Origin: Bacteroidota bacterium
GTDB lineage: Bacteria > Bacteroidota > Bacteroidia > Palsa-965
Assembly: GCA_013298545.1 (NCBI GenBank)
Contig: JAAFIA010000004.1
Location: 26,832 to 90,831 of the forward strand
DNA: 64,000 nt
Direction: 5' to 3'
The notes below the pieces were generated by a model, which made no database searches, was not told the DNA's origin, and saw only the letters and a list, made by a program, of their open reading frames with translations. Below are positions 5,542 to 43,791 of the stretch, one piece after another. Within the stretch, counting starts at the first letter, position 1; each line of letters opens with the position of its first letter. Position numbers and translations under genes: made by a program.

Positions 5542-5542
5542 A

Positions 5543-9954: not shown

Positions 9955-9985
9955 AAAACGGATAGCTGTTGGGCTATCCGTTTTT
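9955..9985. terminator. intrinsic terminator (bidirectional hairpin) between the two giant surface-protein genes
   Basis: aaaacggatagc-tgttgg-gctatccgtttt: a 12-bp stem flanked by an A-tract on one side and a T-tract on the other. Confidence 0.7.
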
Positions 9986-10003
9986 ACATAACAAAGAATG
10001 AAT

Positions 10004-13000
10004 TTAGTACGTGATGGTACGTGTAATGATTTCGTTTGTTTCACTCTTCAAACGGATGGTGTAAACACCACGCTCTTTTGTTGATAGATCAATTTGTTTG
10101 CTGTATGTTCCAGAGAAGCTCGTCAGATCTTCGCGGTAAACAACTTGACCCAGCACGTCATAAATTTCGAGCACGTAGTTTTCTTTCTTATCCACATTGA
10201 ATCGCAATTCAAAACGACCGTCGTTTGGATTTGGATATAACGAGAAGAAGTTTGCCGCAGATGTACCTTCGATTCCAGTAATCATGATTGGTTGCGATTC
10301 AACAGAAGGACAGCCAATAGCATCATACACAACAACAGTATAGTTGCCTGTTTGTGTTGCGGTATAAGTTTGTGCAGTTGCGCCTGGGATCGGATTTCCA
10401 TTGAGGAACCACTGATAACTTGCTCCTGTTACAGACGATGTCAGTACGTTGCCAACATTGGTAATGGTTGGTGTTGCAGGTGTTGAACCAACAGTTACGG
10501 TTACAACAACCGTTGCCGTACAACCATTGATGTCTGTTCCTGTTACGGTGTACGATGTTGTTGTTGCTGGAGAAACGGTTACAGAAACGCCGCTAAGGTT
10601 GCCCGGATTCCACGTGTAAGTATCAGCGCCTTGCGCGGTAAGTGTTGTGGCATCGCCAGGGCAAATTTGTTGATTGCCGGTAGCGGTTACAGTAGGCGCG
10701 TCGTTTACGTTAATGGCAACTGTGCCAACGTTTGTACAGCCATTTGCATCTGTTCCTACAACGGTGTAAGTAGTATTTGACACAGGAGAAACAGTTACTG
10801 GAGATCCGCTGAGGTTGCCAGGGTTCCAAGTGTAGGTATTTGCTCCTGATCCGCTAAGAACGGTGCTGTTTCCAGTACAGAGTGTGGTATTCGATGCAGA
10901 CGCAGCAACAGTCGGTAAGCTATTGACGGTTACAGCAACGGTCGATGTATTTGTACAACCGTTTGCATCTGTTCCTGTTACGGTGTAAGTGGTTGTCGCA
11001 GTTGGTGCATCGGTTACAGAAGCACCGCTCAAATTACCCGGCATCCAGTTGTATGAAGATGCGCCACTAGCGGTCAACGAAACAGAAGATCCTTGGCAAA
11101 TTGCGGCATTGCCAGATGTTGCCGTAACGGTTGGCGGCGTATTGACCGTGATCGAAACAGTAGAGGTGTTTGTACAACCTGCAGCCGATGTTCCAGTTAC
11201 AGTATAGGTTGTGTTTGCTGTTGGAGCAACACTAACCGAAGAACCAGAGAGGTTGCCCGGATTCCAAGTGTATGTTGATGCGCCACTGGCATTCAGCGTT
11301 GTGTTTCCACCAGAACAAATTGTACTGCTTGTTGCGGTCGAAGAAATGGTTGGCAATTGATTGACCGTTACCAGAACAGTTGCTGTATTTACGCAGCCCG
11401 GGCCGTTTGAACCTGTTACGGTGTATGTCGTTGTCGTTGCTGGCGAAACGGTAACAGAAGCGCCACTCAAGTTGCCCGGCATCCAGTTGTACGTTGTCGC
11501 GCCATTGCCTGTCAGTGTTGCAGAATTGCCAATACAAATTGCCGCATTAGAAGTTGCTGCAGTTACTGTTGGCAAACTTCCTACTGTAATTGTAATGGTT
11601 TGAACGTTTGTGCAACCACTCGTAGTTCCTGTTACGGTGTACGTTGTTGTTACGGCAGGAGTAACGGTAATCGATGCACCACTCAAGTTGCCTGGTTGCC
11701 AGTTGTATGTGGTTGCGCCTGATGCCGACAAGGTAACAGGATTGCCTGTGCAGATACTTGTGCTCGAAGCGGTAGTCGTAACAGTTGGAGAAGGGTTAAC
11801 CGTAATGGTTTGGTTAAACGTGTCTGTGCAACCATTGGCTGCTGTTCCGGTTACGGTGTACGTTGTTGTTGTTGTTGGCGACACCGTTACAGAAGTACCA
11901 CTCAAATTGCCCGGTTGCCAAGTATAGGTGCTTCCACCAGCAGCCGTAATGGTTGTGCTGTTTCCAGAACAAATCGTTGCGAGTGCAGTTGACGCGGTTA
12001 CGTTTGGCGTTGTGTTAACCGTAATGGTTCGTGTTGTTGTTCCTGTACAGCCAGCAGAGGTACCTGTGATGGTATAGGTTGTTGTTACAGCAGGAGATAC
12101 AGTTACCGACGCACCACTCAAATTGCCCGGCATCCAATTGTAGGTTGTTGCTCCAGAAGCCGTGATGGTGGTGCTATTTCCAGAACAGATGGTGGTGTTT
12201 GTAGCTGTTGTGGTTACTGTTGGCGAAGGATTGACAGTAATAGTTTGATTCACCGTGTTTGTACAACCATTCGCCGCAGTTCCTACGATGGTGTAGGTTG
12301 TTGTTGTTGTTGGCGACACCGTGTTTGAAGCACCACTTAAATTACCCGGTTGCCAGTTGTACGTGCTTGCACCAGAGGCTGTGATGGTTGTACTGTTTCC
12401 AGAACAAATTGTAGCGAGCGCAGTTGATGCTGTTACGGTTGGTGAGGTATTAACCGTAATGGTTCGTGTTGTTGTTCCTGTACAGCCACCTGTAGTTCCG
12501 GTGATGGTATAAGTTGTCGTTGTTGCAGGAGATACTGTTACTGAAGCACCACTCAAATTACCCGGCATCCAATTGTAGGTTGTTGCTCCAGAGGCAGTAA
12601 TGGTTGTACTATTGCCAGAACAAATCGTCGTATTTGTCGCCGTAGTTGTAACGGTTGGACTTGGCGTAACGGTTATCTGAACGGTTGAAGTCGCAGAACA
12701 ACCTGCCGATGTTCCCGTTAAGGTATAAGTTGTCGTTGTTACAGGAGATACCGTTACTGAAGCGCCACTCAAATTGCCCGGCATCCAGTTATACGTTGAT
12801 GCACCAGTAGCCGTGAGTGTTGTACTGTTTCCAGTACAAATGGCTGTATTTGATGCCGTAGCGGTTACCGTTGGTGTTGGATTTACAGTAATGGTACGCG
12901 TTGATGTTCCCGTACAACCAGCCGATGTTCCCGTAATGGTGTATGTTGTTGTTGTTGTTGGCGACACCGTATTTGAAGCACCAGTCAAACTACCGGGCAT

Positions 13001-16000
13001 CCAGTTGTAGGTTGTAGCACCAGAAGCGGTAATGGTTGTGTTGTTGCCCGAACAAATGGTTGTACTGGTTGCCGTAGTTGTAACGGTTGGAGTAGCGTTT
13101 ACAGTAATAACCTGTGTGGCACTACTGTTGCCATTTCCATTGGTAGCGGTGAGTGAAACAGTATATGTTCCGGGTGTGTTCCAAACAATACCAGAAGGAT
13201 TTTGTGCTGTTGACGATGCCGGAGTTCCACTCGGGAATGTCCAAGCCCAACTTGTTGGGCCGCCTGTTGAAGCATCGGTAAAATTGACGGTTGCGCCTGT
13301 ACATACTGTTGTTGCGCTTGCGGTAAATGCAGCAACTGGGCCAGCAGCAGCGTTTCCGGCAAGGTTTACGTTATCAACATAAAGCGCTTGTCCGTAGCGT
13401 CCGCGGTTGCGGAATGCGACGAGCACAGAACCTTGACCAACATAGGCATTTAGGTTAACTGATTCGTTGCGCCATTGTGCGTTTGTTGGAACAAAAATGG
13501 TTGCTGTTTGATCGGGAGCGGTTGCAAGTGTTGTGCCTCCTTTCAAATAAACCGAAGTCCATGTTGCTCCACAATTGGTAGAAACAACGACTTCAAGTGT
13601 ATCGGAATAGGTAGCGTCGTAGCGCGCATAAGCGACATCAAATGTTAACGAGCAGGTAGTGAGTGCAGAAAAATTAAGGCGAGGCATAATCATCTCGTCT
13701 CGTGCACCTGCTACGTCCATTGTATAGTTATCAAATCGAGCACTTGCGGTTGAGTTGTAACCAACTGTTTGACGGTTCCAATAAATACCATCGTTATTGA
13801 TGTTGTTTGCCGTCCAGCCCGCAGGGAGGAATGTTGTTGATTCAAATCCTTCCGATATAGGCGGATTTTGAACACCAAGAACTGTAATGACTTGCGTAGT
13901 AGCATTGCTGCCGTTTGCGTTTGTTGCAGTAAGCGTTACCGTATATGTTCCGGGTGTATTCCAAACAATACCGCTTGGATTTTGTGCCGTTGATGTTGAT
14001 GGAGTTCCACTTGGGAAAGTCCAAGCCCAAGAGGTTGGAACAAAAGAGGATTGGTCGGTAAAGTTTACGCCCACTCCCGTGCATGTTGTAAATGTGCTTG
14101 GAGTAAATTGCGCCACCGGAGGCAATGTTCCGGGATTGTAAATATCAACTTCCCAAACACCACGTCCATACGTTGCCGCGCGAAGCTTGCCTGTTGGGGC
14201 ATAAACTTCAAGATCTTCGATACCGCAATTCGGAATACCAGTGAGGTAAGGCTGCCAAGAAGCGAATGTATTATCGATGTAATACACGCCAACATCCATA
14301 CCTACATAAGCCGCATCATTTGTTGCACCTGGCATATAAGTAATACAGTTTGCAGGAAGATTTGGAAGGCCCGTAGAAAGGTTTGTCCATGCTCCGCCAC
14401 CATTGGTAGTTTTATATACTTTATTTCCAGAAGAATAGCCAGAGAATGTTACCAAAACGGTGTTTGGATCATTTGGTTTAATAGCCAATCGAGTAATGGC
14501 CGCCGAACCAACAGGAAGTGTACCCGTTACGTTTGTCCAAGCACCACCACCATTGGTTGATTTCCAGACTTGGTTAGAGCGGCACACATAAATCACCTGA
14601 TTGTTTGATGGGGCAACTTGAATATCGACAATTGTTCCTGATCCAGTTAATGTGCCTTGTTGCGTCCAATTCGTTCCTTGGTTGGTTGACTTAAAGACTT
14701 GTGTATAACCCGCCCAAAGTGTATTGGCTGTTGTCGGATCTTGTACCCAAGGCGTAACCCATGCTGCATTTCCTGTAAGGCCAGTAATAATTCCTGTCCA
14801 TGTAGCACCGCCATTGGTTGTTCGGTTAAAGTTACCATTGTATTGCTCGCCATACATGACATTGTTGTTTGTGCGATCAACAAAGCAAGTCATACCATCG
14901 CCGCCCATCGTTTCGGAATAACCCGCACCGTTGCGCAGGTTCGTTCCATTGTCTTGGTGGCCAGTGAGCCAGTATGTAGGATTAGAGGCAGATAAACCAA
15001 TACGATAGATTTGAGCGATGCAAAGATTTGCTGAAATATCGGCCCAAGCACCGCCGCTGTTGGTTGTTTTAAACACACCACCGTCGCAACCTGCAAAATA
15101 AGTTGTACCACTTCCGGGCAAGAACACGAGATCGTGAACGTCTGCATGCACATAAGGTGCGCCGGTGCCAGTCCAGTGTCCATTGATTGTCCATGTTGTA
15201 CCGCCGTTTGTGGAGCGCCAAATATTGACACCACCTACAATAATTTGGTCTTGGTTGAGTGGAGAAGCGGCAATGGCTAAATCATACCAACTTTGTCCAC
15301 CAGTATCGCTACCTGTGCTTGACCAACCCAGCACGTTTGGTGTTGTAGAGCGTGAAGCAAATGTTGTTCCGCTATCGGTAGAGCGATAAAGGCCATAAAA
15401 ACCACTATTGGCATTGCTTCCAGCTAAAATATACACATAAGCAGGATTTGCTGCGGTAACAGCAATTGCTAAACGGTTGTTTTGTGCGCTTGTTGGAAGG
15501 CCAGAGGTAATGTTTGTCCATGTTGCACCGCTGTTTGTTGATTTATAGAACAATGTTCCAGCAGCATAAATGGTTGTCGGATCGCCAGGTTTAAATTCTG
15601 CATCTTTAATGTTGGCCGTACTTACTTGAGCCCAATTTACACCAGCATCAGTCGAACGCCAGATACCCGCACTGGAGAAGGCCATGATGATTTGTGGATT
15701 GGATGGGTTGATGAGCAATTTGCTAATCACGCGGCCTTGGTTTACTGTCCAAGTCAAGCCTGATGTATTCCATGTAGTACCACCATCAGTCGATTTTAAA
15801 ACGCCAATCGAGTAAGAGTCGCCCGCATCGCCATCGCCAGTAGCCAAATACATGATTTGTGTATTGGTTGGATCAATAGCCACATCGGTACAGCCGATGA
15901 CGGTCAGAAAATCGGTATTGGTTGTCCAACTAACACCTCCGTTAATTGATTTCCAGAGGCCGCCATCGGGAGCGCCAGCCCACATGGTAGTGCTGTTGGT

Positions 16001-16540
16001 GGGGTCAAAACGCACAAAATTGATACGCCCCGCGCCGCCGCCAGAAGGAGCGCCAGTTGGCCCAGCAAACGTCCATGTGCTCGACATAATCGAGTTGGAA
16101 TTGTTCTGGAAATAGTTTTGTTGATTTTGTTGGCCTTGCATCCATTGTTGAAGCGCAGCAGGATTGCTTTGCAAATAGCTATTGAATTTGGCCGTAGTTG
16201 TAGAAGGCAAGCTCAAATCGCCAGAAGGATAAACACGGGGTTCCATGCGGTATTCCCAGCGTTTAAAAGCCTTGTAGCCACCACGCATATTGGGCATGGG
16301 GGTAATATTCTGTGGGTTTATGGTTGAGAATTTAGAACCCGCTTGCGCATTGTCTTGACGCGCCTGCATCAATTGTTGTTCGCGTGCGCCCCAGATACTA
16401 TAAAAATTGGCCTGAATGTCGTAGAAGTTCGTTCCTGGAGCGTTTTGTATAAACTCGCGCCAATCTTGTGCATACAAAGACGATGTGGCAGAAAGCAAAA
16501 CAAAAAGAACCCAGCGAAAGCGTAAAAAATTACGAATCAT
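10004..16540 (-). CDS. giant (2178 aa) BNR/Asp-box surface protein with 2 PKD-like domains, 12 tandem ~75-aa Cys-containing Ig-like repeats and T9SS type-A CTD; paralog of the 5543..9862 protein
   Basis: True start MIRNFLRFRWVLFVLLSATSSLYAQ at 16540 (the ORF-track start at 16648 adds junk residues). The N-terminal ~800 aa are collinear with the upstream paralog (WTFAGPTGAPSGGGAGRINFVRFDP vs WSFVGPTGAPIDGGAGRINFIRFLP). Repeats of the form ..ICSGNSTTITASGATTYNWMPGNLSGASVTVSPATTTTYTITGT..GC.. x12. C-terminal CTD ...GVYTIRLKSETNEIITRTITY. Confidence 0.85.
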   Translation of the reverse strand: MIRNFLRFRWVLFVLLSATSSLYAQDWREFIQNAPGTNFYDIQANFYSIWGAREQQLMQARQDNAQAGSKFSTINPQNITPMPNMRGGYKAFKRWEYRMEPRVYPSGDLSLPSTTTAKFNSYLQSNPAALQQWMQGQQNQQNYFQNNSNSIMSSTWTFAGPTGAPSGGGAGRINFVRFDPTNSTTMWAGAPDGGLWKSINGGVSWTTNTDFLTVIGCTDVAIDPTNTQIMYLATGDGDAGDSYSIGVLKSTDGGTTWNTSGLTWTVNQGRVISKLLINPSNPQIIMAFSSAGIWRSTDAGVNWAQVSTANIKDAEFKPGDPTTIYAAGTLFYKSTNSGATWTNITSGLPTSAQNNRLAIAVTAANPAYVYILAGSNANSGFYGLYRSTDSGTTFASRSTTPNVLGWSSTGSDTGGQSWYDLAIAASPLNQDQIIVGGVNIWRSTNGGTTWTINGHWTGTGAPYVHADVHDLVFLPGSGTTYFAGCDGGVFKTTNSGGAWADISANLCIAQIYRIGLSASNPTYWLTGHQDNGTNLRNGAGYSETMGGDGMTCFVDRTNNNVMYGEQYNGNFNRTTNGGATWTGIITGLTGNAAWVTPWVQDPTTANTLWAGYTQVFKSTNQGTNWTQQGTLTGSGTIVDIQVAPSNNQVIYVCRSNQVWKSTNGGGAWTNVTGTLPVGSAAITRLAIKPNDPNTVLVTFSGYSSGNKVYKTTNGGGAWTNLSTGLPNLPANCITYMPGATNDAAYVGMDVGVYYIDNTFASWQPYLTGIPNCGIEDLEVYAPTGKLRAATYGRGVWEVDIYNPGTLPPVAQFTPSTFTTCTGVGVNFTDQSSFVPTSWAWTFPSGTPSTSTAQNPSGIVWNTPGTYTVTLTATNANGSNATTQVITVLGVQNPPISEGFESTTFLPAGWTANNINNDGIYWNRQTVGYNSTASARFDNYTMDVAGARDEMIMPRLNFSALTTCSLTFDVAYARYDATYSDTLEVVVSTNCGATWTSVYLKGGTTLATAPDQTATIFVPTNAQWRNESVNLNAYVGQGSVLVAFRNRGRYGQALYVDNVNLAGNAAAGPVAAFTASATTVCTGATVNFTDASTGGPTSWAWTFPSGTPASSTAQNPSGIVWNTPGTYTVSLTATNGNGNSSATQVITVNATPTVTTTATSTTICSGNNTTITASGATTYNWMPGSLTGASNTVSPTTTTTYTITGTSAGCTGTSTRTITVNPTPTVTATASNTAICTGNSTTLTATGASTYNWMPGNLSGASVTVSPVTTTTYTLTGTSAGCSATSTVQITVTPSPTVTTTATNTTICSGNSTTITASGATTYNWMPGNLSGASVTVSPATTTTYTITGTTGGCTGTTTRTITVNTSPTVTASTALATICSGNSTTITASGASTYNWQPGNLSGASNTVSPTTTTTYTIVGTAANGCTNTVNQTITVNPSPTVTTTATNTTICSGNSTTITASGATTYNWMPGNLSGASVTVSPAVTTTYTITGTSAGCTGTTTRTITVNTTPNVTASTALATICSGNSTTITAAGGSTYTWQPGNLSGTSVTVSPTTTTTYTVTGTAANGCTDTFNQTITVNPSPTVTTTASSTSICTGNPVTLSASGATTYNWQPGNLSGASITVTPAVTTTYTVTGTTSGCTNVQTITITVGSLPTVTAATSNAAICIGNSATLTGNGATTYNWMPGNLSGASVTVSPATTTTYTVTGSNGPGCVNTATVLVTVNQLPTISSTATSSTICSGGNTTLNASGASTYTWNPGNLSGSSVSVAPTANTTYTVTGTSAAGCTNTSTVSITVNTPPTVTATSGNAAICQGSSVSLTASGASSYNWMPGNLSGASVTDAPTATTTYTVTGTDANGCTNTSTVAVTVNSLPTVAASASNTTLCTGNSTVLSGSGANTYTWNPGNLSGSPVTVSPVSNTTYTVVGTDANGCTNVGTVAINVNDAPTVTATGNQQICPGDATTLTAQGADTYTWNPGNLSGVSVTVSPATTTSYTVTGTDINGCTATVVVTVTVGSTPATPTITNVGNVLTSSVTGASYQWFLNGNPIPGATAQTYTATQTGNYTVVVYDAIGCPSVESQPIMITGIEGTSAANFFSLYPNPNDGRFELRFNVDKKENYVLEIYDVLGQVVYREDLTSFSGTYSKQIDLSTKERGVYTIRLKSETNEIITRTITY
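10490..13110 (-). repeat. in-frame tandem DNA repeats (~225-228 bp unit, ~12 copies, ~85-95% identity) encoding the Ig-like repeat block
   Basis: Near-identical DNA blocks, for example 12030-12260 versus 12450-12680. The antisense strand yields repeated spurious ORFs with PLKLPGIQLY-type translations. Confidence 0.8.
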
Positions 16541-16875
16541 AATACGTGGTGTTTGGTTGGTGTGGTAATTCTTATTGAATAGGTGCGAAATAGAAAAAAT
16601 TACATAAGAAGTGCCAAAAAAGATCAAGAAGATGTCAAAATACGACAAGTCCTAAGCCGCTTCTAAAATTTGTACTCGTTCTATTTACACAGCAACAAGT
16701 TACGCGTTATAACATAGAAAAGGTTCTTTTTTTAGACAAAAGCACCAAAATACTCGCCAAGTGCTAAAAAAATGTTTTTTAAAATGATAAACACTAAAAT
16801 GTTCATTAAATACCTCGCCTTACCCCAAAATTGCCAAAGCCTCTTTCTAGTTTAGCTACCAATAATTCCAACGGT

Positions 16876-28208: not shown

Positions 28209-28345
28209 GTGTTGGTTTTTGAAAAGTTTTTTGAAAACAAAAATGTACAAAGTGGCCTCAGCGCATCTTGGCTGAGGCAAAGGACATCGGTGTGTTATTT
28301 TCAAAAAATGCAACGACATGCGTTTGTTTGATTTTTAAAATTCAG

Positions 28346-28417
28346 AGTTGCAGGAAGGATTCGAACCTTCGGTTTCTGTTTTGCAGACAGATGCCTTAAC
28401 CACTTGGCGACAGCAAC
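28346..28417 (-). tRNA. tRNA-Cys (anticodon GCA)
   Basis: Reverse-complement gttgctg tc gcc aagtggttaa ggc a tctgt ctGCAaa acaga aacc gaagg ttcgaat ccttc ctgcaac t folds as a cloverleaf. Features: U8, A14, GG18-19, U33, A37, T-loop TTCGAAT, discriminator U73 (typical of tRNA-Cys), one U-U mismatch in the acceptor stem. CCA is not encoded. Confidence 0.8.
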
Positions 28418-34919: not shown

Positions 34920-35194
34920 ACCAGCCTTTTTATTCGTAATGATTTGATTGACAGTCTTTTTCATTTTCTAGAGCGTTTTGGGTTGAACTGATTTATTGCG
35001 CTTTCTGATAATAAGGGAAGAGAAAAGCAAAATTCCACACAGAAAATGAAAATATTTTTTTTATCCCTTCAAATTATGGAAAATCGGCCCTTTCTACCCT
35101 TTTGTTTAAGAAAGATTTGGTGGATTAGAAAATACGTTATATATTGTGCTTGGCAAATTCAAACACAATTAGTTTCACGTGTAAAACCGTTTAC

Positions 35195-35774
35195 TGTGAA
35201 GATTCGTTTTTTCTGGTCTAAAAAAGAGACCGACCTGACCGATCAGGAGCTGATCGAGCAGTACAAGCAATCCACGAATTCGTGGTATGCAGGCGAGTTG
35301 TTCCGCCGTTACACCCAGTTGATCACTGCGGTAGCTTACAACTACATGCAGAACGAGGTAGAAACAGAAGACGTCGTTATGGAAGTCTTTGAAATCATTC
35401 TCCGCGATCTGCAACACCATGAGGTCAACAACTTTAAAACGTGGGTGTATAGTGTTACCAAACACCACTGTCTGAAGAAACTTCGCAAAGACAGCAAGGA
35501 AGTGGTTGACGTGGAAAATGCACTCCGGCATATTGCTGTTGACGAGACACCAAAGACAGAAGCCGTCCGACTCGAAGAGCGGATCGAGCAACTCGAACAG
35601 GCCGTTACCAAACTTTCTTTGGAACAAAAGAAATGTATTGAACTCTTTTACTTCAAGCAAAAGAGCTACAAAGAAGTTTCTGACCTCACCGGGTATTCGG
35701 TGAACGAAGTTAAAAGCTACCTGCAAAACGGGAAACGTAACCTCAAAGGTTATTTGGAGAAAGCGGAAGTATGA
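35195..35774 (+). CDS. RNA polymerase ECF-type sigma-70 factor
   Basis: Region 2 (LIEQYKQ...AGELFRRYTQLITAVAYNYM..DVVMEVFEII) and region 4 (KCIELFYFKQKSYKEVSDLTGYSVNEVKSYL). The first 50 residues of the track ORF (ATG 35046) look non-native; a GTG at 35195 is a plausible start. Start uncertain. Confidence 0.8.
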
Positions 35775-36865
35775 CGCCTGCAGAACTTAAACGGATCTTT
35801 CAAAACGGCGAATGCCTTTCGCTCGAAACGATGCGTCTTTACCAAAGCAGCAAACTCTCTTCAAAGAGTATGCACGAGGTAGAGAAACATTTGCTCGAGT
35901 GTGGCCTTTGTGCGTCGGCATTGGAAGGTTTGTCGCCCAAAAACAAGGCGGCTATCGATAAAGTTTCTACACACATTCAACGTCGGCTTGCTATTTATAT
36001 GAATACGCCGCCGCGCCTTTCTTTTTTTCAACGATACGGATTTACGTTAGCCTCCCTCGCACTTATTCTTGCCATCGGAGGAGGCGTTTGGATTTACCAA
36101 TCAACCAAAACCAATACGCCAGACCGAATCGATACGGCTCAGGTTTCTCCCCCCGCACAAACCCCTCCGCCCCAAAATCCTTCTTCGAATACGGATGATC
36201 GACCGGAAGCTCCGGTCGATTTTGCTTCTACACAAACGCAAACAACCGTTACAACATCCGAATTTACTGCCCCAACCGCACACATCGCCCCACCAGACAA
36301 ACAAAAGAATCCGCTACCCCTCCAACAAAACACCAAAGAAAATAAAACACAAACCAACCCCGAACCGCTAAAAGCACAAGCCCCTACCGAATCGCATACC
36401 GCAAACAGTAACCCTACAGAAGGACCTAACACACGCGTAGCCGCCCCCGCGCCCCTACGCATGAAAAGCGTTATCGTACTCAATAAAGTAGAACACACCA
36501 CCCGCTCGGCCCGCGATGCCAGTTCTGGAAGCAGCGGACAACTCGGCAAAAGCACCAAAAGCAACGGCGGTTTTCAACTCGATGAAATGCCCCAGTTTCC
36601 TGGCGGCGATGCTGCTTTGCGCGAATATGTTTTGTCAAATTTCAAAATGCCCGGAACAGACCGTGCAAAACTCTCCCGCTTGGCAACCGGAATTACATTT
36701 GTCGTAAACGCAAAAACAGGTGAAATTTCCGACGTCGTACTCAATTACTCCATATCCCCCGAAATCGACGCAGAACTTATTCGCGTTGTTAAAGCCATGC
36801 CACGCTGGAATCCCGGATCGCGCCGCGGTTCTATTGATGTGATTCTTGGAATAACACTCGAATAA
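35771..36865 (+). CDS. anti-sigma factor with zinc-finger N-domain, one TM helix, Pro-rich linker and C-terminal TonB-C domain
   Basis: ATGA overlap with the sigma gene. N-terminal HLLECGLC zinc-finger-type anti-sigma motif. TM FTLASLALILAIGGGVWIY. PPAQTPPPQNP linker. C-terminal FPGGDAALREYVLSNFKMP...GITFVVNAKTGEISDVVL TonB C-terminal fold. Confidence 0.75.
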   Translation: MTPAELKRIFQNGECLSLETMRLYQSSKLSSKSMHEVEKHLLECGLCASALEGLSPKNKAAIDKVSTHIQRRLAIYMNTPPRLSFFQRYGFTLASLALILAIGGGVWIYQSTKTNTPDRIDTAQVSPPAQTPPPQNPSSNTDDRPEAPVDFASTQTQTTVTTSEFTAPTAHIAPPDKQKNPLPLQQNTKENKTQTNPEPLKAQAPTESHTANSNPTEGPNTRVAAPAPLRMKSVIVLNKVEHTTRSARDASSGSSGQLGKSTKSNGGFQLDEMPQFPGGDAALREYVLSNFKMPGTDRAKLSRLATGITFVVNAKTGEISDVVLNYSISPEIDAELIRVVKAMPRWNPGSRRGSIDVILGITLE

Positions 36866-36917: not shown

Positions 36918-38462
36918 TTACGCACTAGCTTTCGCGTTTTCGTGAATGAAATCACGCATGGGACGATTTTCGAGGCGATGGCGCGCCCAAATCTCAAACT
37001 CTTCAATACCCACCAACCGTGATCCTGAACCTTCCCGTAACGAGGTCAACGAATCCAACAACTCCTTGAAAATCTCTGGGTATTCGCTCGGACGACTATC
37101 CGTAAGTTGGCGCAAACATTTAAAAATAAACGCCTCAAATCCGAACGATGCATTTTGCTGATTAAACAAACGTTTCACCGAACGGTAACTGTATTCCAAT
37201 AAATCATGCTTTCCTGTTTCAAAAAACAAAACCAACTGAATCAAACGCGCCAAATGTTGTAAATCAATCCGCGCATCTGTTTTTCCATCCTGAATAATTT
37301 TATTGATCCACTCCAGCGAAGCTTTGAAATTCTCTTTCAAAAAGAGCAACAAACCAATATTGTAATAAAAGGCCAATTCCCGCGCCTTATTAATTTTGGT
37401 GCGGTATATTTTCATTCCCTTTTCAATTTCGGGAAGTAAGCTAATGGCGTAATCCATTTTATCGCAATTCATACAATAGAGTAATTCCATGTAGTACGTG
37501 TTTTGGAATTTCTCCGCCTCTTCCTCTTCCGAATTGCAATTCAGATTTTTATATGCTTCTAATGTTTCCGCAAAACTATCGAAATTGCCTCGGTTGAAAC
37601 ACGCATTCAGGTAATTGGATAAACTGATTTGGTACATGATACCATCTTCCAACTTGCGGTGCTCAAACCGATCCCAAAGCGCAAGCAACTCTTTTTGACA
37701 CGAATACGCTTCATCAAAAGAACCAATACCTTGAAAATAATTTTGTTGTGTGATCAAGTAATTGTATTGCAACTCAAACGAATTTTGATCAGGAACACGA
37801 TTAAATAATTCATGCTTTGCTAAACGTTGAAAAAAATCTTGATGTGCTTCGTCTTTTGAATACGATTTATGCCGCAAGCGCATAAAACTCTGGCAACGCA
37901 TTTGCGAACGAGTGGTGTACTCATTAAACTTTTCTTGCACCACACCAATCTCCGCATTGATCTCGTCCGTTGCAATAACAATATCTTTAGTTGTTCGTTC
38001 AAGAACAGTATTCCGCTCCAAAAAGAGAATCTCCAACAACATGGTAAACTTTTCGTATTCGTAAGCCAATTTCTTTGCACGCTGCAGTTCTTTGTCGCAG
38101 AGATCATACAAGCGTTTTTCAATCAGAAAACGAATGTCGAGCATGGCCTCTTTGAGTTGCTTATCCACCGATTTTTCGGAGTGGAATGTACGCATGCTCT
38201 TGAGGACAAAATTATAGAGGTAGTTTTTCTCGGAAGAAATATGGCGAGAAGGAATCTGCTTTTTAAGTTTCTCTTCATTATGTTCCGCCATAGCCAAAAC
38301 AGCATCAAAAAGACGCATGTACTTGTTCTGTTCGCCAATCAAATGTTTTGAGGCAAAAATTTTCACATACCGCTTCTCGGCTTGCGAGAGGCTGTGTAAC
38401 AGGCGATGAAGGTCGTCCGTTGCTTTCATAGCACAACTACTTTGTAAATCGAACTCAAACAT
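36918..38462 (-). CDS. hypothetical all-helical (TPR-like) protein, 514 aa
   Basis: No signal peptide. Repeated amphipathic helix pairs throughout. Divergent from the Cys-rich protein gene. Possible start at MKATDD (38429). Confidence 0.55.
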   Translation of the reverse strand: MFEFDLQSSCAMKATDDLHRLLHSLSQAEKRYVKIFASKHLIGEQNKYMRLFDAVLAMAEHNEEKLKKQIPSRHISSEKNYLYNFVLKSMRTFHSEKSVDKQLKEAMLDIRFLIEKRLYDLCDKELQRAKKLAYEYEKFTMLLEILFLERNTVLERTTKDIVIATDEINAEIGVVQEKFNEYTTRSQMRCQSFMRLRHKSYSKDEAHQDFFQRLAKHELFNRVPDQNSFELQYNYLITQQNYFQGIGSFDEAYSCQKELLALWDRFEHRKLEDGIMYQISLSNYLNACFNRGNFDSFAETLEAYKNLNCNSEEEEAEKFQNTYYMELLYCMNCDKMDYAISLLPEIEKGMKIYRTKINKARELAFYYNIGLLLFLKENFKASLEWINKIIQDGKTDARIDLQHLARLIQLVLFFETGKHDLLEYSYRSVKRLFNQQNASFGFEAFIFKCLRQLTDSRPSEYPEIFKELLDSLTSLREGSGSRLVGIEEFEIWARHRLENRPMRDFIHENAKASA

Positions 38463-38619
38463 AGTAATTATTTGCGGACAAGAGATTTAGAGCTAAGACT
38501 GTAATATTTGACTTCCAAGAATGACAAAAAATCTTGTCGTTTTTTTCTGCGACTTTTTCAGATTTCTTGCGTAGAAGACCCAAACAATAAATTATTCACC
38601 CTAAAAAAAGACCCAAATT

Positions 38620-39078
38620 ATGCCAACCCTACCCGTACGCTACCCCATGGGGCAATTTACCATTGTGTTTTTCAAGCAATACCGTCAGCTCGGTATATTT
38701 AGTTTTGAAACGAACAGCATTACAGCCATCCACTCATTAACCAACGGACGAAAAATTTCGATTGACACCTCAACAAACGAATTGGTCCTAGACACCGCAC
38801 CCACAGGAACATTTTTTAAAACAATGTATAGCATGGACAATGCCTCCATTGCTTTGTCAGATTGTTGTTTGATTGTTGGTACTGGCGATGGACGTGGTGG
38901 CACAGCATTTACAGATACTTACACCCTGACCAACGCATCAAGTTGCCCAACCGTAATTATCAAATGTGATACCGCTAACCAATTATCTATTTCTACCGCT
39001 TGTGGAGATGCATCATGCTCCCTTCCAAAAACAGAATGCAAATCGCATACTGCTGTTAATGCGAATAGCTACAATTAA
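38620..39078 (+). CDS. hypothetical Cys/Thr/Ser-rich protein (152 aa), no signal peptide
   Basis: The C-terminal 70 aa are low-complexity with 8 Cys (SDCCLIVGTGDGRGGTAF...SSCPTVIIKCDTANQLSISTACGDASCSLPKTECKSH). The N-terminal half is beta-rich. Confidence 0.5.
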   Translation: MPTLPVRYPMGQFTIVFFKQYRQLGIFSFETNSITAIHSLTNGRKISIDTSTNELVLDTAPTGTFFKTMYSMDNASIALSDCCLIVGTGDGRGGTAFTDTYTLTNASSCPTVIIKCDTANQLSISTACGDASCSLPKTECKSHTAVNANSYN

Positions 39079-39098
39079 CCACTAATTTCCGCAGCCGC

Positions 39099-40229
39099 AT
39101 GCAAACCCCCATCTGCACGGCTTACGGTCAGATTAAACAAGTGCTTTTACTTTATCGGTGTCCAACCTGCGATGATCCATCGCAGGTTGGTGCCGTATTT
39201 AAAAGTCTGATAGACGCACTCGGACCGCAAGTAGAATTTTTTATTCTGATCCAACTCAATAACGGATCAGAGGTGTTTACTATTCCCTCTTCCCAGCCCA
39301 ATGTGCATTTAATTGCCGTTAACCCCGCTGTTGTTCGAATCGAAAATTTTTTGACCCAATGGACGCAAGATGTTGTATTGCCATTTTACGACAACGGAAT
39401 CACACATTTACTTTTTGATGATAGCCGAATAGATTCTCAGGTTATACAATGCTTAAATACAAAAACAGAAAAATTTCAGTTTAAAGCACACCATCAACCC
39501 ACCTGGCAAGGCGGGAATATTTTACCTGTTTCGGGAAAAGAACCTTTTCTACTTGTCGGAGCATCCATTTTGCAAGAATATGTAAGCGGTTTGCCCGCCA
39601 AGCAAAAACAAGAAGCACAACAAAAACTGGAGAAAAATTTTGCAGCAGTTTTTGGTGGAGCAAAAATATACTGGCTCGGTAAACAGAAGACACAAGGACA
39701 AGTAAATGGCGGCCAACCACTCTTTCATCTCGATCTATATCTCATGCCCGTTGGCATCGTCCCTGCTTTGAACAAAGAGCGCATACTCATTTTTGTTGCA
39801 GAAGTAAAACCAGACTATGCCATGGCAGGCTATACCCATGAACTCGCCGAATTGGCTCAAGCACTCGATAAAACAGCCAATTGGTTTGCAAACGACAAGC
39901 AACACCCCAAGCATCTTTTTGTCGTGAAACGCCTCCCCTTACTGGCTTTTGAAGACAAAGAACACATCGCGTCCTATACCAATTGTTTGGTTGAAAACAC
40001 CACAGAGGCTTGTCGCATATTTTTACCCGATTACCGCCCGCAGCCCACAAACGGGAATGGTGTAAATCCTGAGCGACTAAAAAAAATTACAGCGATTCAG
40101 GAGATAATGACCACAGCGCTGCAAGAAATAGACATTCAACCCGTTTGGATTGATCAGAATTTTTACGAAATGACCCGAAAAGAAGGGGCCTTACATTGCC
40201 TAACAAAGGTGTTGAAACGCACCCTGTAA
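39099..40229 (+). CDS. agmatine deiminase / Porphyromonas-type peptidylarginine deiminase (PAD_porph, guanidino-modifying enzyme superfamily) family protein, divergent
   Basis: C-terminal EGALHCLTK matches the catalytic GG(N)IHC(I)T motif of PF04371. Upstream QWTQDVV resembles the SW.RD.GP motif. The His-containing FHLDLYLMPVG is consistent with this fold. Starts 20 bp after the Cys-rich gene. Confidence 0.55.
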   Translation: MQTPICTAYGQIKQVLLLYRCPTCDDPSQVGAVFKSLIDALGPQVEFFILIQLNNGSEVFTIPSSQPNVHLIAVNPAVVRIENFLTQWTQDVVLPFYDNGITHLLFDDSRIDSQVIQCLNTKTEKFQFKAHHQPTWQGGNILPVSGKEPFLLVGASILQEYVSGLPAKQKQEAQQKLEKNFAAVFGGAKIYWLGKQKTQGQVNGGQPLFHLDLYLMPVGIVPALNKERILIFVAEVKPDYAMAGYTHELAELAQALDKTANWFANDKQHPKHLFVVKRLPLLAFEDKEHIASYTNCLVENTTEACRIFLPDYRPQPTNGNGVNPERLKKITAIQEIMTTALQEIDIQPVWIDQNFYEMTRKEGALHCLTKVLKRTL

Positions 40230-40638: not shown

Positions 40639-41490
40639 CTAACCCAGAACAACATTATCAATTAGTCGGATAACGCCGAGGCGAGCAGCAATGCACGCCA
40701 CGGCGTTTTTCTTTTGTCCTTCACGAAGCGGAAGCAACGTGTCGGCATCAACGAGTTCTAAATAAATCGGTTCTATACGCGGCTCTTTGGCCAAAAAATC
40801 CAGCGCGCGCCCCCGCACCTCCGCCGCACTCCATTCCCCCGCCCACAGCTCCTGCACCAACAACAAACTCGCATATAGCAACGGCGCAATCAAGCGCTCC
40901 TCCGCCGTCAACCGCACATTCCGCGAACTCATGGCCAAGCCATCAGCCTCCCGCACAATTGGGCAACCCACAACCTCAACGGGCAACGCCAGCTCCCGCG
41001 TCATGCGCCGCACAATCGCTAGTTGCTGAAAATCCTTCTGCCCAAAAAATGCACGGCAAGGACCAACCGCCTCAAAAAGTTTATGCACAATACGCACAAC
41101 CCCCGCAAAATGGCCCGGACGCGAAGCCCCTTCCATCGGCAAATCCAAGCCACCTAAATCAACAACAGGTGTTTGTTCAGCCGTCCCTTCTGGGTACATC
41201 TCATTGACCTCCGGAAAAAACAAAATATCGCAACCCGCCTCCAACAACAATGCCCGATCGGCATCAAACGTACGCGGATAATTTTTTAGATCGCTCGCAT
41301 CATTAAACTGTGTCGGATTCACAAAAATGCTTGCCACCACCAAATCAACCGATTCCCGCGCATAATGCACAAGCGAGGCATGACCACGATGCAATGCACC
41401 CATTGTTGGCGCAAATCCAACGCGAAGGCCCTGTTGACGAGCCTCATCGAGCTTTGCTCGCAAAGCAGAAATTGTTGTAACGACAATCAA
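40639..41490 (-). CDS. panC: pantoate--beta-alanine ligase
   Basis: PTMGALHRGHASLV (HIGH-class motif), FVNPTQFN, and overall PanC colinearity. The track start at 41640 overlaps the divergent gene at 41610; the likely start is a TTG/ATT near 41490 (...LIVVTTISALRAKL). Start uncertain. Confidence 0.85.
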   Translation of the reverse strand: MIVVTTISALRAKLDEARQQGLRVGFAPTMGALHRGHASLVHYARESVDLVVASIFVNPTQFNDASDLKNYPRTFDADRALLLEAGCDILFFPEVNEMYPEGTAEQTPVVDLGGLDLPMEGASRPGHFAGVVRIVHKLFEAVGPCRAFFGQKDFQQLAIVRRMTRELALPVEVVGCPIVREADGLAMSSRNVRLTAEERLIAPLLYASLLLVQELWAGEWSAAEVRGRALDFLAKEPRIEPIYLELVDADTLLPLREGQKKNAVACIAARLGVIRLIDNVVLG

Positions 41491-41609
41491 AACAAACGAT
41501 TTTAAAAAAGCGATAGCATAGAAGCCGCCAAAACTAAGTCTTTCCTTGATGGAATCGAAAAAAAATCGTAATTTTGCTATCCCACACACAAAACCACTAA
41601 TTCTCCTGA

Positions 41610-42437
41610 ATGAAAAAAGCCAAAGTTCTTTTCGTATCACAGGAAATCATGCCTTACCTGGATGAATCCCCAATGGCGCATACTAGCCGTTATTTACCAC
41701 AAGGGATTCAAGAAAAAGGCAAAGAAATCAGAACATTTATGCCACGTTACGGATGTGTCAACGAACGCCGTAATCAACTGCACGAAGTCATTCGCCTTTC
41801 TGGTATGAACCTGATTATTGATGATACCGATCATCCGCTCATCATCAAAGTTGCTTCTATTCAAGCAGCACGCATGCAAGTGTACTTCATCGACAACGAA
41901 GAGTACTTCCAACGCAAATTTACCTTAACCGACAAAAAAGGCGAATATTTTGCCGATAACGACGAACGCATGATTTTCTTTGCGCGCGGTGTCATCGAAA
42001 CGGTTAAAAAATTGGGCTGGGCTCCTGATGTGGTGCATTGCCACGGCTGGTTTACTGCACTCATGCCGCTCTATCTCAAAAAAGCATTCCGCGATAATCC
42101 GCTTTTTGCCGACACCCGCGTGGTGTATTCTGTTTACGACGACGATTTTCCAAATCCACTCGACAAAGATTTTCACAAGAAAATTCCAATCGAAGGCGTT
42201 GATAAAAGCGATGTTGAAGCAGTTGCAAAAACGGCAACCTTTGCCAATGTAACACGTCTTGCCATTGAATATTCAGACGCTGTCATCAAAGCAGCACCGA
42301 AAATCAATCCCGATGTCGAGAAATACCTCAAAAAAGCAGGCAAAAATGTGCTGGAATACAAAAATCGTGACGAATATGTCGCCGCTTATTCCGAATTTTA
42401 CGACGCAGTTTTGGCCGAAGAGCCAAGCCTCGTTTAA
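41610..42437 (+). CDS. glycogen/starch synthase N-terminal-domain-only protein (GT5-like, 275 aa)
   Basis: MKKAKVLFVSQEIMPY...PDVVHCHGWFTALMPLYLK resembles the GlgA N-terminal catalytic domain (Glyco_transf_5). The C-terminal GT-B half is absent, as seen in some Bacteroidota. Confidence 0.65.
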   Translation: MKKAKVLFVSQEIMPYLDESPMAHTSRYLPQGIQEKGKEIRTFMPRYGCVNERRNQLHEVIRLSGMNLIIDDTDHPLIIKVASIQAARMQVYFIDNEEYFQRKFTLTDKKGEYFADNDERMIFFARGVIETVKKLGWAPDVVHCHGWFTALMPLYLKKAFRDNPLFADTRVVYSVYDDDFPNPLDKDFHKKIPIEGVDKSDVEAVAKTATFANVTRLAIEYSDAVIKAAPKINPDVEKYLKKAGKNVLEYKNRDEYVAAYSEFYDAVLAEEPSLV

Positions 42438-42444
42438 AACAACT

Positions 42445-43791
42445 ATGAATACTCTCTTTTCACGAATTACCAGTCAAACTTTGCGGGTGCTCGCGCCCGC
42501 AAAGTTTTTTTTAGCCGCTACTCTGCTACTCGCCTCTTGCAAAAAAGAAAGCGACATCGGGATCGATATTCAACCAGAAAGCGATCTCCTCGACCTTCAG
42601 ATTTCTGACACCACAACGCTCGTTACCTATACCGTGCGCGAAGATTCTGTTCGTACCGACGAAACAACAGTAAGCCTGCTCGGAAGTTATGTCGATCCGA
42701 TTTTTGGAAAATCATCTGCCGGAATTTTTACACAATTCATGCTTCCAAACAACCTGCAAAACATCGACTTCGGTGCTACCGCGGTTTTGGATTCTATGGT
42801 GCTCACCCTCGCCTATAAATTCGATTATTACGGCGATACAACTTCGACACAAAATATCGTGGTGTATCAAATGACCGAAGCACTCGTCAAAGACAGCAAT
42901 TACTTCTCAAACCATTTGCAGCAGTATTACCCAACGCCAATTGGTCAAGTAAACGTTACGCCTAAACCGCGCACCAAAGTTGCTGTTGGTTCAGATACCT
43001 TGCCCGCACACATTCGCATCCCAATCGATCCGTCGTTTGCGAACCTTTTATTCAGCCAATCGGGTACAGCAAACTTTGCAAACAACACCAACCTGCTTCA
43101 GTTTTTTAAAGGTCTTTACATCACACCAAACAACCCATCGCAAGCAACGGGTCAAGGATCTGTTTTTCAAATAGGCATGCGCGAAACGCAAACGGCGCTC
43201 ACCATGTACTACCACACCGCAACAGACACCACAAAATTTTCATTGGTTGTTCCTGCCGAAGGCGCATATTACGATTATTACACACACGATTATACAGGAA
43301 CTCCTGTTCAAACACAGCTCAATGCGCAACCCGGACAACAAGCCGAAGTCTATCTGCAAAGCATGGGCGGTGTAAAAACCAAAATCGAATTTCCATTTCT
43401 CGACAATTGGAAAAATTTGGGCTACAACATTGCCATCAATCAAGCCGAACTTGTGATCAAAGCAGATCCCAGCCAAGCTACGAGCGATAGACCAATCAAT
43501 ACCCGTTTATTTTTAGTCGCGATCGACTCGCTTGGTCGATCTAAATTATTGATTGATATGACGGAAACGCTCTCTTATTATGGCGGAACAGTCAATACAA
43601 CCAATAGCGAATACCGAATCAATCTTGCTCGTCATTTTCAGGACATGCTTTCTGGCGAGGAAGGCAATTACGGTTTTTACCTCAAAGAAATTTCTCCCAC
43701 CGAAACCGCTCGTCGCGCAGTTATTGGTGGCGGAGATCCAAGCAGCCCATACAAAATGTACCTGCATCTCGTTTACACCCGAATCAACTGA
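42445..43791 (+). CDS. DUF4270-like lipoprotein (448 aa)
   Basis: MNTLFSRITSQTLRVLAPAKFFLAATLLLASC lipoprotein signal at 42445; the track start at 42259 overlaps the upstream gene. Fits the Bacteroidota DUF4270 architecture. The family assignment is from recall and not verified. Confidence 0.65.
   Translation: MNTLFSRITSQTLRVLAPAKFFLAATLLLASCKKESDIGIDIQPESDLLDLQISDTTTLVTYTVREDSVRTDETTVSLLGSYVDPIFGKSSAGIFTQFMLPNNLQNIDFGATAVLDSMVLTLAYKFDYYGDTTSTQNIVVYQMTEALVKDSNYFSNHLQQYYPTPIGQVNVTPKPRTKVAVGSDTLPAHIRIPIDPSFANLLFSQSGTANFANNTNLLQFFKGLYITPNNPSQATGQGSVFQIGMRETQTALTMYYHTATDTTKFSLVVPAEGAYYDYYTHDYTGTPVQTQLNAQPGQQAEVYLQSMGGVKTKIEFPFLDNWKNLGYNIAINQAELVIKADPSQATSDRPINTRLFLVAIDSLGRSKLLIDMTETLSYYGGTVNTTNSEYRINLARHFQDMLSGEEGNYGFYLKEISPTETARRAVIGGGDPSSPYKMYLHLVYTRIN

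Follow-up and report, generated by a model that had tools for sequence, protein, structure and literature searches.

The window analysed here is a 64,000-nucleotide stretch of a Bacteroidota contig, and the locus of interest within it consists of three genes and two short intergenic elements. On the plus strand, a gene for a small protein of 152 aa (38620..39078), predicted to be all-beta, is followed after a spacer of 20 bp by the gene for its apparently dedicated partner, a 376 aa protein (39099..40229) predicted to be a divergent pentein-fold (PF04371-like) cysteine hydrolase and referred to below as the enzyme. Divergent from this pair, on the minus strand, lies the gene for a helical protein of 514 aa (36918..38462), which is related distantly, but over its full length, to the regulator-like BT2802/RusR family. 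The intergenic region contains box A (AAACATAGTAATTATTTG, 38457..38475, no strand assigned), a candidate promoter/operator adjoining the regulator start, and a 16-nt element, TTGACTTCCAAGAATG (38508..38523, plus strand), a candidate operator approximately 100 nt upstream of the small gene. A preliminary description of this DNA had reported the three ORFs and the 20-bp spacer, and all were recovered at the same positions on rechecking. They are real genes rather than chance ORFs, because homologues keep this arrangement in eight close lineages, the window included (L001, L007, L008, L009 and L011-L013), and are also found at more distant loci. The homologues in these close lineages share 35-55% protein identity. 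Neighbours of the locus include a sigma/anti-sigma pair, panC, a GT5 gene and glmS; the whole panC-to-glmS region is syntenic in the close clade, and the locus, surrounded by housekeeping genes, looks vertically inherited. The enzyme evolves far faster than the neighbouring genes.

Word-index homologue searches returned just two relatives of the enzyme and four to six of the small protein, and an exhaustive profile search was needed to reveal the family. This HMMER search recovered 595 cluster representatives of the enzyme, defining a sizeable unannotated family of about 600 clusters at 50% identity. A scan of metagenome contigs yielded only four short loci, the search of phage sequences gave no matches and the plasmid search gave a single match. 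The three-gene unit is rare, uncharacterised and conserved across distant Bacteroidota. In the records examined, NCBI labels family members as hypothetical or as "agmatine deiminase family" (a Vibrio relative is an "agmatine deiminase family protein"), a label that is probably wrong as to substrate.

Direct searches of Pfam, NCBIfam, PADLOC and PDB sequences with all three window proteins were uninformative apart from the match of the helical protein to the RusR family. For the window enzyme, no Pfam or NCBIfam match was obtained; PF04371 did not match even at E ≤ 1, so its gathering score was not reached. Weak PF04371 matches were found for 19 of 40 sampled wider relatives (best E-value: 3.5e-11) and for three of six close relatives. 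The enzyme family profile matches the H. pylori agmatine deiminase structures 2cmu/3hvm (E-value: 4e-4) in two segments that together cover most of its length, with D91 aligned onto D84 and C367 onto C324. An AF2 model of the enzyme is of low confidence (pLDDT 55, 3 sequences); compared with the PDB, it matched PAD1, PAD3 and P. gingivalis 1zbr and nothing else at E < 1e-3. Neither the window enzyme nor any of 46 relatives had PF02274 among its listed matches, and arginine deiminase structures were reached by the family profile only at E = 1.3. Based on these matches, the enzyme is assigned to the guanidino-group-modifying (pentein) superfamily, on the PF04371 side and not the PF02274 side. 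This agrees with the preliminary description, which had proposed superfamily membership from a GALHCLT signature (present at residues 363-369) and had asked which of the two Pfam families applied. The same description had drawn attention to an N-terminal CPTC pair. This pair is present at residues 21-24, but it is probably incidental because it is not conserved in orthologues, and it was rejected as a functional site.

The canonical pentein catalytic residue set (PMC6447857) comprises a C-terminal Cys, a His-x-Asp pair and a second, guanidinium-binding acidic residue. Candidates for all of these are found in the enzyme: C367 (40197-99), H210 (39726-28) with D212 (39732-34), and D91 (39369-71). 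Among 40 diverse family members, C367, D212 and D91 are invariant and H210 is at least 90% conserved; N295, E299, Q206 and R374 are also conserved. We propose that the enzyme is catalytically competent. The order and type of these residues are shared with the PF04371 family (H. pylori AgD 3hvm, P. gingivalis 1zbr and plant AIH), including the Asp of an N-terminal W-x-[RQ]-D, an H-x-D, an S-Y-x-N and, a few residues before the end, the nucleophile of a C-terminal G-x-x-H-C. In contrast to that family, the enzyme falls below Pfam/NCBIfam thresholds and has a signature of its own (WxQD, QPxFHxD, SYNNCLVE with an invariant Glu, and TKVLxR with an invariant Arg; in fuller form WxQD, QPxFHxDx[FY], S[YF]NNCLVE and GSLHCxTKVLxR). 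It further differs in its dedicated small protein, its RusR-like companion and the fusion of relatives to TIR or EAD11.

A further difference bears directly on the substrate. In the plant enzyme MtAIH, Asp220, four positions before the catalytic His, binds the primary amine of agmatine (PMC6447857). The corresponding position here is Gln206 (QPLFH210), with the register inferred from the H-x-D anchor; this Gln does not vary in the close and mid-distance alignments and predominates among 150 representatives. The window enzyme had no match among the NCBIfam AguA equivalog models (TIGR03380/NF010070), which weakly matched just three of 40 relatives, at E-values of 6e-5 and 1e-3. Judged by these features, the enzyme is not a bona fide agmatine deiminase, an outcome on which the preliminary description had made its own proposal depend.

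The small protein is conserved along its whole length. It has no predicted signal peptide, and its structure model, predicted to be all-beta, is of low confidence (pLDDT 60, 7 sequences). Its last 70 residues had been described as Cys/Thr/Ser/Gly-rich with eight Cys. The composition is as described (44% C/T/S/G, compared with 29% in the head), but the tail contains six Cys and the whole protein seven (residues 82, 83, 109, 116, 128, 133 and 140). Four of these, C109 (38944-46), C128 (39001-03), C133 (39016-18) and C140 (39037-39), form a tetrad with spacing x17-19, x3-4 and x6 that is kept in distant lineages and absent in others; it fits a structural metal or disulfide site. The same description had noted the lack of an obvious Arg-rich core. 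There is nonetheless a single invariant Arg, R92, in a conserved G87-x-x-D90-x-R92 motif (38878-38895) that is predicted to form a hairpin loop. The D-x-R of this loop contains the only strictly conserved residues of the protein, and outside the loop there is almost no invariant surface.

The small-protein and enzyme genes are translationally coupled and strictly paired. Even where the enzyme homologues are just 22-27% identical, significant small-protein homologues are encoded immediately upstream of them, and the co-occurrence of the Cys-rich ORF with the deiminase, raised earlier as a question, holds in close and distant loci. In L015, L016, Aureispira and L034, small ORFs carry the motif, as does a C-terminal extension of the enzyme in L017, with homology that is weak or unsupported. 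The Aureispira and L015 ORFs have weak support (P about 0.004-0.006, above 58 control ORFs), homology in L016 and L034 was statistically unsupported, and the apparent small protein-enzyme fusion of L017 (with "SIVVASDFRERYG" in the extension) was rejected for want of statistical support.

The helical protein matches the NCBIfam model NF058569 (BT_2802_fam) over nearly all of its length (E-value: 1.7e-39, 136 bits; protein residues 12-504, model positions 1-500 of 502), below the cut-off of 550 bits. Thirteen of 14 helical partners from other loci match the same model, likewise in this below-cut-off manner. The protein is thus best placed, by its sequence, as a distant branch of the BT2802/RusR superfamily and not as an equivalog. 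Its true start is likely to be M12 at 38429, giving a protein of 503 aa, because homologues align from there and this is also the length of an NCBI protein in the same 90% cluster. A TPR-type regulator or scaffold had been suggested for this gene. It is indeed divergently transcribed and regulator-like, but an RNPP or TPR identity could not be demonstrated: its relationship is to BT2802/RusR, TPR_1 was matched at E = 0.077, and a PDB profile search gave only consensus-TPR matches at E of about 1. Weak TPR_1/TPR_2 matches were seen in two homologues. BT2802 of Bacteroides thetaiotaomicron, a putative DNA-binding regulator, is required when the bacterium grows on ribose (bioRxiv 10.1101/574913; PMC8121099). 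Both proteins are from Bacteroidota, match along their full helical length and are encoded divergent from or adjacent to the operon that they presumably control. They differ in score (136 versus the 550 bits of the cut-off) and in setting, a pentein module in place of the ribose utilisation locus, and DNA binding is putative for both. The helical gene adjoins enzyme homologues in 22 Bacteroidota-type modules and on a short contig, L023.

Both intergenic elements are conserved. Box A is retained in an alignment of eight orthologous intergenic regions, and a box A-like AAACATAG[TC]AAATA is present in the distant loci L030 and L032. The 16-nt element has no other match in the 64-kb window at up to three mismatches; every close locus has it at the corresponding position, and it recurs with one or two mismatches in L030 and L032. 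It is a candidate operator for the RusR-like protein. A riboswitch or leader RNA was considered for this region and rejected, as neither an Rfam match nor a consensus RNA structure or covariation was found. The RusR/BT2802 regulator-like family is poorly understood; the present locus links it, independently, to a second genomic context and offers a candidate site on the DNA.

Relatives of the module occur in a different setting. They adjoin genes for SMODS/CD-NTase, NARF, Cap15-CHAT, caspase, S8, TIR-SLOG and type III CRISPR proteins, and two members of the enzyme family are fused, to TIR or EAD11. Because relatives adjoin or are fused to immune-type genes, the unit resembles neither a peptide-antibiotic cluster nor an agmatine pathway and looks instead like an undescribed conflict/defence module. 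A literature search found no description of this module and no paper tying deimination to these defence systems. SMODS/CD-NTase and NARF genes are present in L026, L027, L029 and L031; no equivalent was detected in the window by tblastn at E ≤ 1e-2 using six SMODS/CD-NTase and two NARF queries from these related loci. As in CBASS/SMODS operons, the small protein-enzyme pair of relatives lies in line with SMODS/CD-NTase, NARF or Cap15-CHAT genes. The window locus, in contrast, has no nucleotidyltransferase, and none of its three proteins matched a PADLOC-DB 2.0 model at E ≤ 1. The pair is not known to match any CBASS accessory set (Cap2/Cap3, HORMA/TRIP13). Adjacency to defence genes may partly reflect clustering in defence islands rather than membership of one system.

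We tentatively favour the explanation that the enzyme is a conflict-system effector whose active site engages the Arg loop of its partner, as pseudo-substrate or substrate, under RusR-like control. The divergent helical protein would serve as a sensor or as a transcriptional regulator, with the 16-nt element as its probable site of action, and would control a two-gene operon with the small protein first and the enzyme second. The enzyme, with Cys367 as nucleophile together with H210-x-D212 and D91, would act on a guanidino group other than that of agmatine. The small protein would be an all-beta scaffold stabilised by its Cys4 site, and its Arg92 loop would insert into the active-site channel and restrain the enzyme in the manner of a pseudo-substrate or an immunity-like gate; in a less favoured variant, Arg92 would be the physiological substrate, converted to citrulline. 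Release would free the enzyme to deiminate, as an effector, arginine residues or some other guanidino target. The wider family would form part of the prokaryotic conflict/defence repertoire, and the version in the window would be its minimal core, stably integrated beside panC. Of this picture, the homologies, conserved residues, gene linkage, fusions and neighbourhoods are direct observations; DNA binding, the contact between loop and active site, the substrate and any role in defence are inferred.

This arrangement is reminiscent of those toxin-antitoxin and effector-immunity pairs whose small protein, encoded upstream, blocks the active site of the enzyme. There, too, translation of the larger enzyme gene is coupled to that of a small gene ahead of it, pairing is strict and divergence is fast. 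The concentration of partner conservation in one loop is a further likeness. Unlike such pairs, the module has a conserved third, regulator-like gene, and we know of no pentein-fold toxin with a pseudo-substrate immunity protein. To our knowledge, deimination of proteins or guanidino groups is not among the established effector chemistries of bacterial immunity. If the family does act as an effector, it would add a new chemistry to that repertoire and provide a bacterial deiminase controlled by a dedicated arginine-presenting protein.

Several observations weigh against the favoured explanation. First, the window locus itself contains no SMODS, TIR or other defence gene, lies in housekeeping surroundings and has no PADLOC match. 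Second, the one relative of the helical protein that has been studied, RusR, governs a catabolic locus. Third, both structure models are of low confidence (pLDDT 55 and 60). In addition, a competent deiminase might simply turn over a genuine Arg placed in its active site, an outcome in line with the substrate variant and not with the inhibitor variant. A more specific form of the proposal is possible yet doubtful: a new class of immune effector, in which a pentein protein-arginine deiminase is kept inert by an Arg-loop pseudo-substrate, is switched by the RusR-like protein and citrullinates host or phage proteins, leading to abortive infection. Relatives would perhaps be switched by SMODS/CD-NTase or by EAD/TIR, and the window would hold the minimal three-gene core.

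It is unlikely that the trio is instead a catabolic or metabolic operon. In that case a free guanidino metabolite, whether an arginine derivative, a guanidino acid or an agmatine analogue, would be hydrolysed by the enzyme, the RusR-like protein would be an activator responding to the substrate, as RusR does to ribose, and the small protein would serve as a chaperone or accessory subunit. The full-length relationship of the helical protein to a regulator needed for a catabolic locus is in keeping with such an operon, as are the conserved synteny among housekeeping genes, the conserved operator-like element, the intact catalytic residues and the NCBI name of the Vibrio relative. Nevertheless, the position that binds the amine of agmatine in plant AIH is an invariant Gln, no AguA model matches the window enzyme, and the module includes no transporter or downstream pathway gene. 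A catabolic enzyme would not be expected to be fused to TIR or EAD11 or to lie repeatedly beside SMODS, CHAT, caspase and TIR genes, evolution far faster than that of the neighbours also speaks against one, and an accessory subunit strictly conserved only in a D-x-R loop would be unusual. Were a catabolic role correct, the family would still be a new group of guanidino-compound hydrolases with an unusual obligate small subunit.

Dedicated protein citrullination, with Arg92 as the physiological substrate and the modified small protein, rather than the enzyme, carrying a downstream signal or switch function, seems similarly improbable. It draws on the same evidence as the Arg-loop effector favoured above, namely that the exposed loop carries an invariant Arg, that the small protein is strictly paired with a competent deiminase-like enzyme and that the two are translationally coupled. 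Apart from the loop, however, the small protein offers nearly no invariant surface for a downstream function, and the effector-type fusions (TIR, EAD11) are to the enzyme and not to the small protein.

The preliminary description had likened the trio to a precursor with its modifying enzyme and regulator. In a RiPP-like cluster of this kind, the deiminase would modify the Cys-rich C-terminus of the 152 aa protein as core peptide. A tail rich in Cys, Thr, Ser and Gly, encoded next to a modifying-type enzyme, invites this comparison, but we consider it very improbable. The protein is conserved at full length with a predicted beta fold, its tail cysteines are a fixed tetrad and not a variable core, the tail has no Arg whereas the conserved R92 lies in the folded body, and no protease, exporter/transporter or RRE gene was found nearby. 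Least probable of all is that the three genes are mere syntenic neighbours in one clade with no functional link: the panC-to-glmS synteny of the close clade would allow this, but it is effectively refuted because at distant loci the trio is kept despite fully changed flanks, with enzymes only 22-27% identical (L026, L027, L029, L030, L032 and L034), through rearranged gene order in L015, L031 and Aureispira and through a tandem duplication in L027.

The three-gene module in the window is real, conserved and undescribed. It consists of a helical 514-aa protein (36918..38462, minus strand), a small 152-aa protein (38620..39078, plus strand) and a 376-aa enzyme (39099..40229, plus strand), with a spacer of 20 bp between the small gene and the enzyme gene. 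All three ORFs are positioned exactly as in the preliminary description. The true start of the helical protein is probably M12 (38429), because its homologues align from this residue and an NCBI protein that shares its 90% cluster has a length of 503 aa. None of the three proteins has a PADLOC match or, on inspection of the sequences, an N-terminal signal-like segment. No description of the module was found in the literature, the coverage of which was incomplete, and hence this result is not proof of novelty.

Used alone as a query, the enzyme has no match in Pfam, NCBIfam, PADLOC or PDB, and a word-indexed search of 5.8 billion proteins returned only two relatives. When a profile of three sequences was run exhaustively with HMMER, it identified 595 cluster representatives at E ≤ 1e-3 (301 at E ≤ 1e-10). 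In a sample of 40 of these, 19 match PF04371 (PAD_porph; E-values down to 3.5e-11), none match PF02274 and three show weak matches to agmatine-deiminase NCBIfam models, which agrees with the PF04371 relationship proposed earlier from the sequence. A profile of the 40 representatives matches H. pylori agmatine deiminase (2cmu/3hvm; E-value: 4e-4) in two segments covering most of the chain, with WxQD91 aligned on WARD84 and GsLHC367 on GSLHC324. The AF2 model of the enzyme is poor (pLDDT 55); its sole matches at E<1e-3 are PAD1, PAD3 and P. gingivalis 1zbr. Residues D91, G138, D212, P280, N295, E299, P310, C367 (within the C-terminus, ...EGALHCLTKVLKRTL) and R374 are invariant in 40 family sequences, and H210, Q90, G139 and N140 reach 90% conservation or more in the same set. 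Across approximately 150 representatives, the family signature is WxQD, QPxFHxDx[FY], S[YF]NNCLVE and GSLHCxTKVLxR. The CPTC pair noted previously is present at residues 21-24, but it is not kept in orthologues.

Penteins employ one Cys, one His and a pair of acidic residues that bind the guanidinium, and the catalytic set of plant agmatine iminohydrolase is Cys366, His224, Asp226 and Asp94 (PMC6447857). This set is intact in the family described here. The plant enzyme and this family differ, however, at the position four residues before the His: in the plant enzyme this is Asp220, which binds the primary amine of the substrate (as does Asp89, via water; PMC6447857), while here it is an invariant Gln (Q206), with a register inferred from the H-x-D anchor and not from a structure. 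Because the catalytic set is intact but His-4 is Gln, we conclude that the enzyme, from a distinct and unannotated family, is predicted to be competent for guanidino-group hydrolysis and is unlikely to be an agmatine deiminase. Its sequence firmly supports membership of a new PF04371-like family with intact putative catalytic residues.

The small protein has no family, structure or defence-model match and is extremely rare, with a total of only 7 clusters even when a mixed profile is the query. The only PDB sequence match of its profile, 7aef_q (labelled 'Phosphoserine phosphatase SerB'), is not significant (E-value: 5.2). Homology was assessed by iterative HMM search of all ORFs of the collected loci (L-numbered below), with E-values calculated for a nominal 100,000-sequence database. 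The first iteration added ORFs of approximately 136-155 aa from L032, L026, L029 and L030 (E-values: 5e-9 to 1e-4), each directly upstream of a distant enzyme homologue, and the second added the small ORFs of both L027 modules; with the E-value calculated for the 1290 ORFs actually searched, the L031 small ORF matches the final profile at 6.7e-5. The motif h-h-G/A-x-x-D-x-R also occurs in small ORFs of equivalent position in other loci, for which homology is weaker: those of Aureispira and L015 have weak support (P of about 0.004-0.006 in hhalign, ranking above 58 control ORFs), and homology of those of L016 and L034 is unsupported. A C-terminal extension of the L017 enzyme was considered as a small-protein fusion and is not counted as evidence, as its homology is likewise unsupported.

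In an alignment of 18 small proteins (11 statistically supported homologues and 7 supported by position and motif only), the Arg is conserved in 18/18 sequences and the Asp in 17/18. The window protein contains seven Cys residues (82, 83, 109, 116, 128, 133 and 140), six of which are in the last 70 residues, where eight had been counted previously. A Cys tetrad with spacing x17-19, x3-4, x6 is also found in L026, L027b and L029 and is missing in other lineages. Such conservation agrees with a folded scaffold, containing a structural Cys4 site (probably zinc), that would present a single arginine loop (G87-x-x-D90-x-R92), and not with a RiPP precursor. It is firmly supported that the enzyme has an obligate small protein partner, the predicted functional site of which is this loop.

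The trio is located next to panC in eight close-clade lineages (including the window), with unrelated flanks in L026, L027, L029, L030, L032 and L034, and with the genes rearranged in L015, L031 and three Aureispira loci. L016 has the same layout, with its small ORF assigned by position, while L017 has the helical protein adjoining the enzyme and an ambiguous small partner. Frequently, the stop codon of the small gene overlaps or touches the enzyme start codon, as in L007, L027a and L027b. The suspected association of the small ORF with the enzyme was borne out in both the close lineages and distant loci with unrelated flanks. Outside of the trio setting, enzyme-family members lack the small partner. 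An Acidiferrobacterales homologue with a signal-like N-terminus has neither partner, nor does a Vibrio maritimus megaplasmid homologue situated between IS elements and beside an S-type pyocin locus. The short contig L023 retains the helical protein only and the short contig L024 neither partner; L022 and L025 were left out of this count because their contigs are too short or poorly resolved. Within the syntenic clade, identities are 35-40% for the enzyme, 44-55% for the small protein and 44-50% for the helical protein, compared to 84% for glmS, 80-84% for the GT5 gene and 58-66% for panC, indicating that the module evolves much faster than its surroundings. The Vibrio locus (L033, plasmid NZ_CP090440.1, 5758-9120) is the sole plasmid homologue; its enzyme, annotated as 'agmatine deiminase family protein', lies between two transposase-like ORFs and adjoins S-type pyocin and bacteriocin-immunity genes. 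In L024, a metagenome contig, a 658-aa ORF (428-2404) comes after the enzyme homologue and overlaps it.

The helical protein matches NCBIfam NF058569 (the BT2802 family; E-value: 1.7e-39) over positions 1-500 of the 502 in the model, with a score of 136 bits that is far under the 550-bit cut-off; 13 of 14 partners at other loci show the same pattern. Its TPR signals are marginal. BT2802 (RusR) has been described as a putative regulator in which DNA-binding motifs are predicted (bioRxiv 10.1101/574913), and its transposon mutants have a strong defect on ribose (PMC8121099). Within the 190 bp between the divergent genes is a 16-nt element, TTGACTTCCAAGAATG (38508-38523), that is the single match at ≤3 mismatches in the entire window. 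Its relative position is unchanged throughout the close loci, and it recurs with 1-2 mismatches 5' of the small gene in L030 and L032, the enzymes of which are approximately 22-24% identical to that of the window. As this position is kept, and as the element has no Rfam match and its leader no conserved RNA structure or covariation, it is predicted to be a DNA-level site, most simply a candidate operator of the RusR-like protein. That this protein and the conserved DNA element are parts of the unit is firmly supported. A degenerate second copy (TTGACGTCCAAAAATG or TAGACCTCCAAAAATG), absent from the window within 3 mismatches, lies just 3' of the enzyme gene in L007 (9647-9662), L008 (9647-9662) and L011 (7141-7156).

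Relatives elsewhere are found among conflict-system genes. SMODS nucleotidyltransferases are directly downstream of the enzyme in L026, L027 (both modules) and L029, accompanied by NARF proteins in L026 and L027; the window contains no SMODS or NARF homologue. L027 (GCA_020635905.1, 1-8439) carries two complete tandem modules: a minus-strand helical gene, 139-aa gene, 420-aa gene and SMODS, then a minus-strand helical gene, 155-aa gene, 407-aa gene, NARF, 158-aa gene and SMODS, followed by a 1291-aa AAA_11/AAA_12 helicase. In L031 (458-4171), the small/enzyme pair comes directly after a SMODS/CD-NTase gene and a Cap15-receptor-CHAT fusion gene, an arrangement that suggests a CBASS-type operon using the pair as accessory genes. 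Type III CRISPR genes (Cas6b, Cas10) adjoin in L026 and L029, a caspase-domain gene is 3' of the enzyme in L030, and a subtilase, a ThsB-type TIR and a TIR-SLOG protein follow the module in the Aureispira loci. Two family members are fusions: P0034 has a C-terminal TIR domain (E-value: 2e-14) and P0063 an N-terminal EAD11 (E-value: 6.8e-6), a member of the effector-associated domains proposed as adaptors between conflict-system cores and enzymes of effector or signalling type (PMC7159879). The P0034 locus, L034, keeps both partners, followed by TIR-WD40, vWA, kinase and PP2C genes.

In the mechanism that we favour for the module as a whole, the Arg92 loop of the partner would occupy the deiminase active site and so gate an effector enzyme. 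Gating is suggested by the confinement of conservation to the loop, by the small gene being first and coupled, and by the effector-type fusions on the enzyme; the enzyme family as a whole may belong to the conflict/defence repertoire. There are two main alternatives: Arg92, invariant in the alignment, could be the true substrate of a module that performs dedicated citrullination, or the genes could form a regulated catabolic operon for a guanidino compound. A RiPP cluster, the precursor and modifying-enzyme arrangement suggested in the preliminary description, is poorly supported; that description was right in its anatomy and only in part in its mechanism.

The module is flanked by housekeeping genes: a GNAT gene upstream and panC, a GT5 glycosyltransferase gene, a BamH-like gene and glmS downstream. 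Immediately upstream, an ECF sigma factor gene (Sigma70_r2/r4_2; 35046-35774) overlaps that of a 364-aa anti-sigma-like protein (35771-36865), which has a weak zf-HC2 match, a low-complexity linker and, by inspection, a TonB-C-like C-terminal region. Most close loci share this pair in synteny, but L009 lacks it, so it probably does not belong to the module. The mechanical ORFs of panC (40639-41640; GTG start, Pfam match from residue 53 only) and the BamH-like gene (42259-43791; TTG start, homologues of 441-455 aa) are over-extended at the 5' end and overlap the GT5 gene; their real starts probably lie more 3'. A run of very large ORFs (1175, 463, 1463 and 2214 aa; 11-16648) occupies the minus strand at the window's left end, and the sole Rfam or ARAGORN match in the window is a tRNA-Cys (GCA) on the minus strand (28345-28417).
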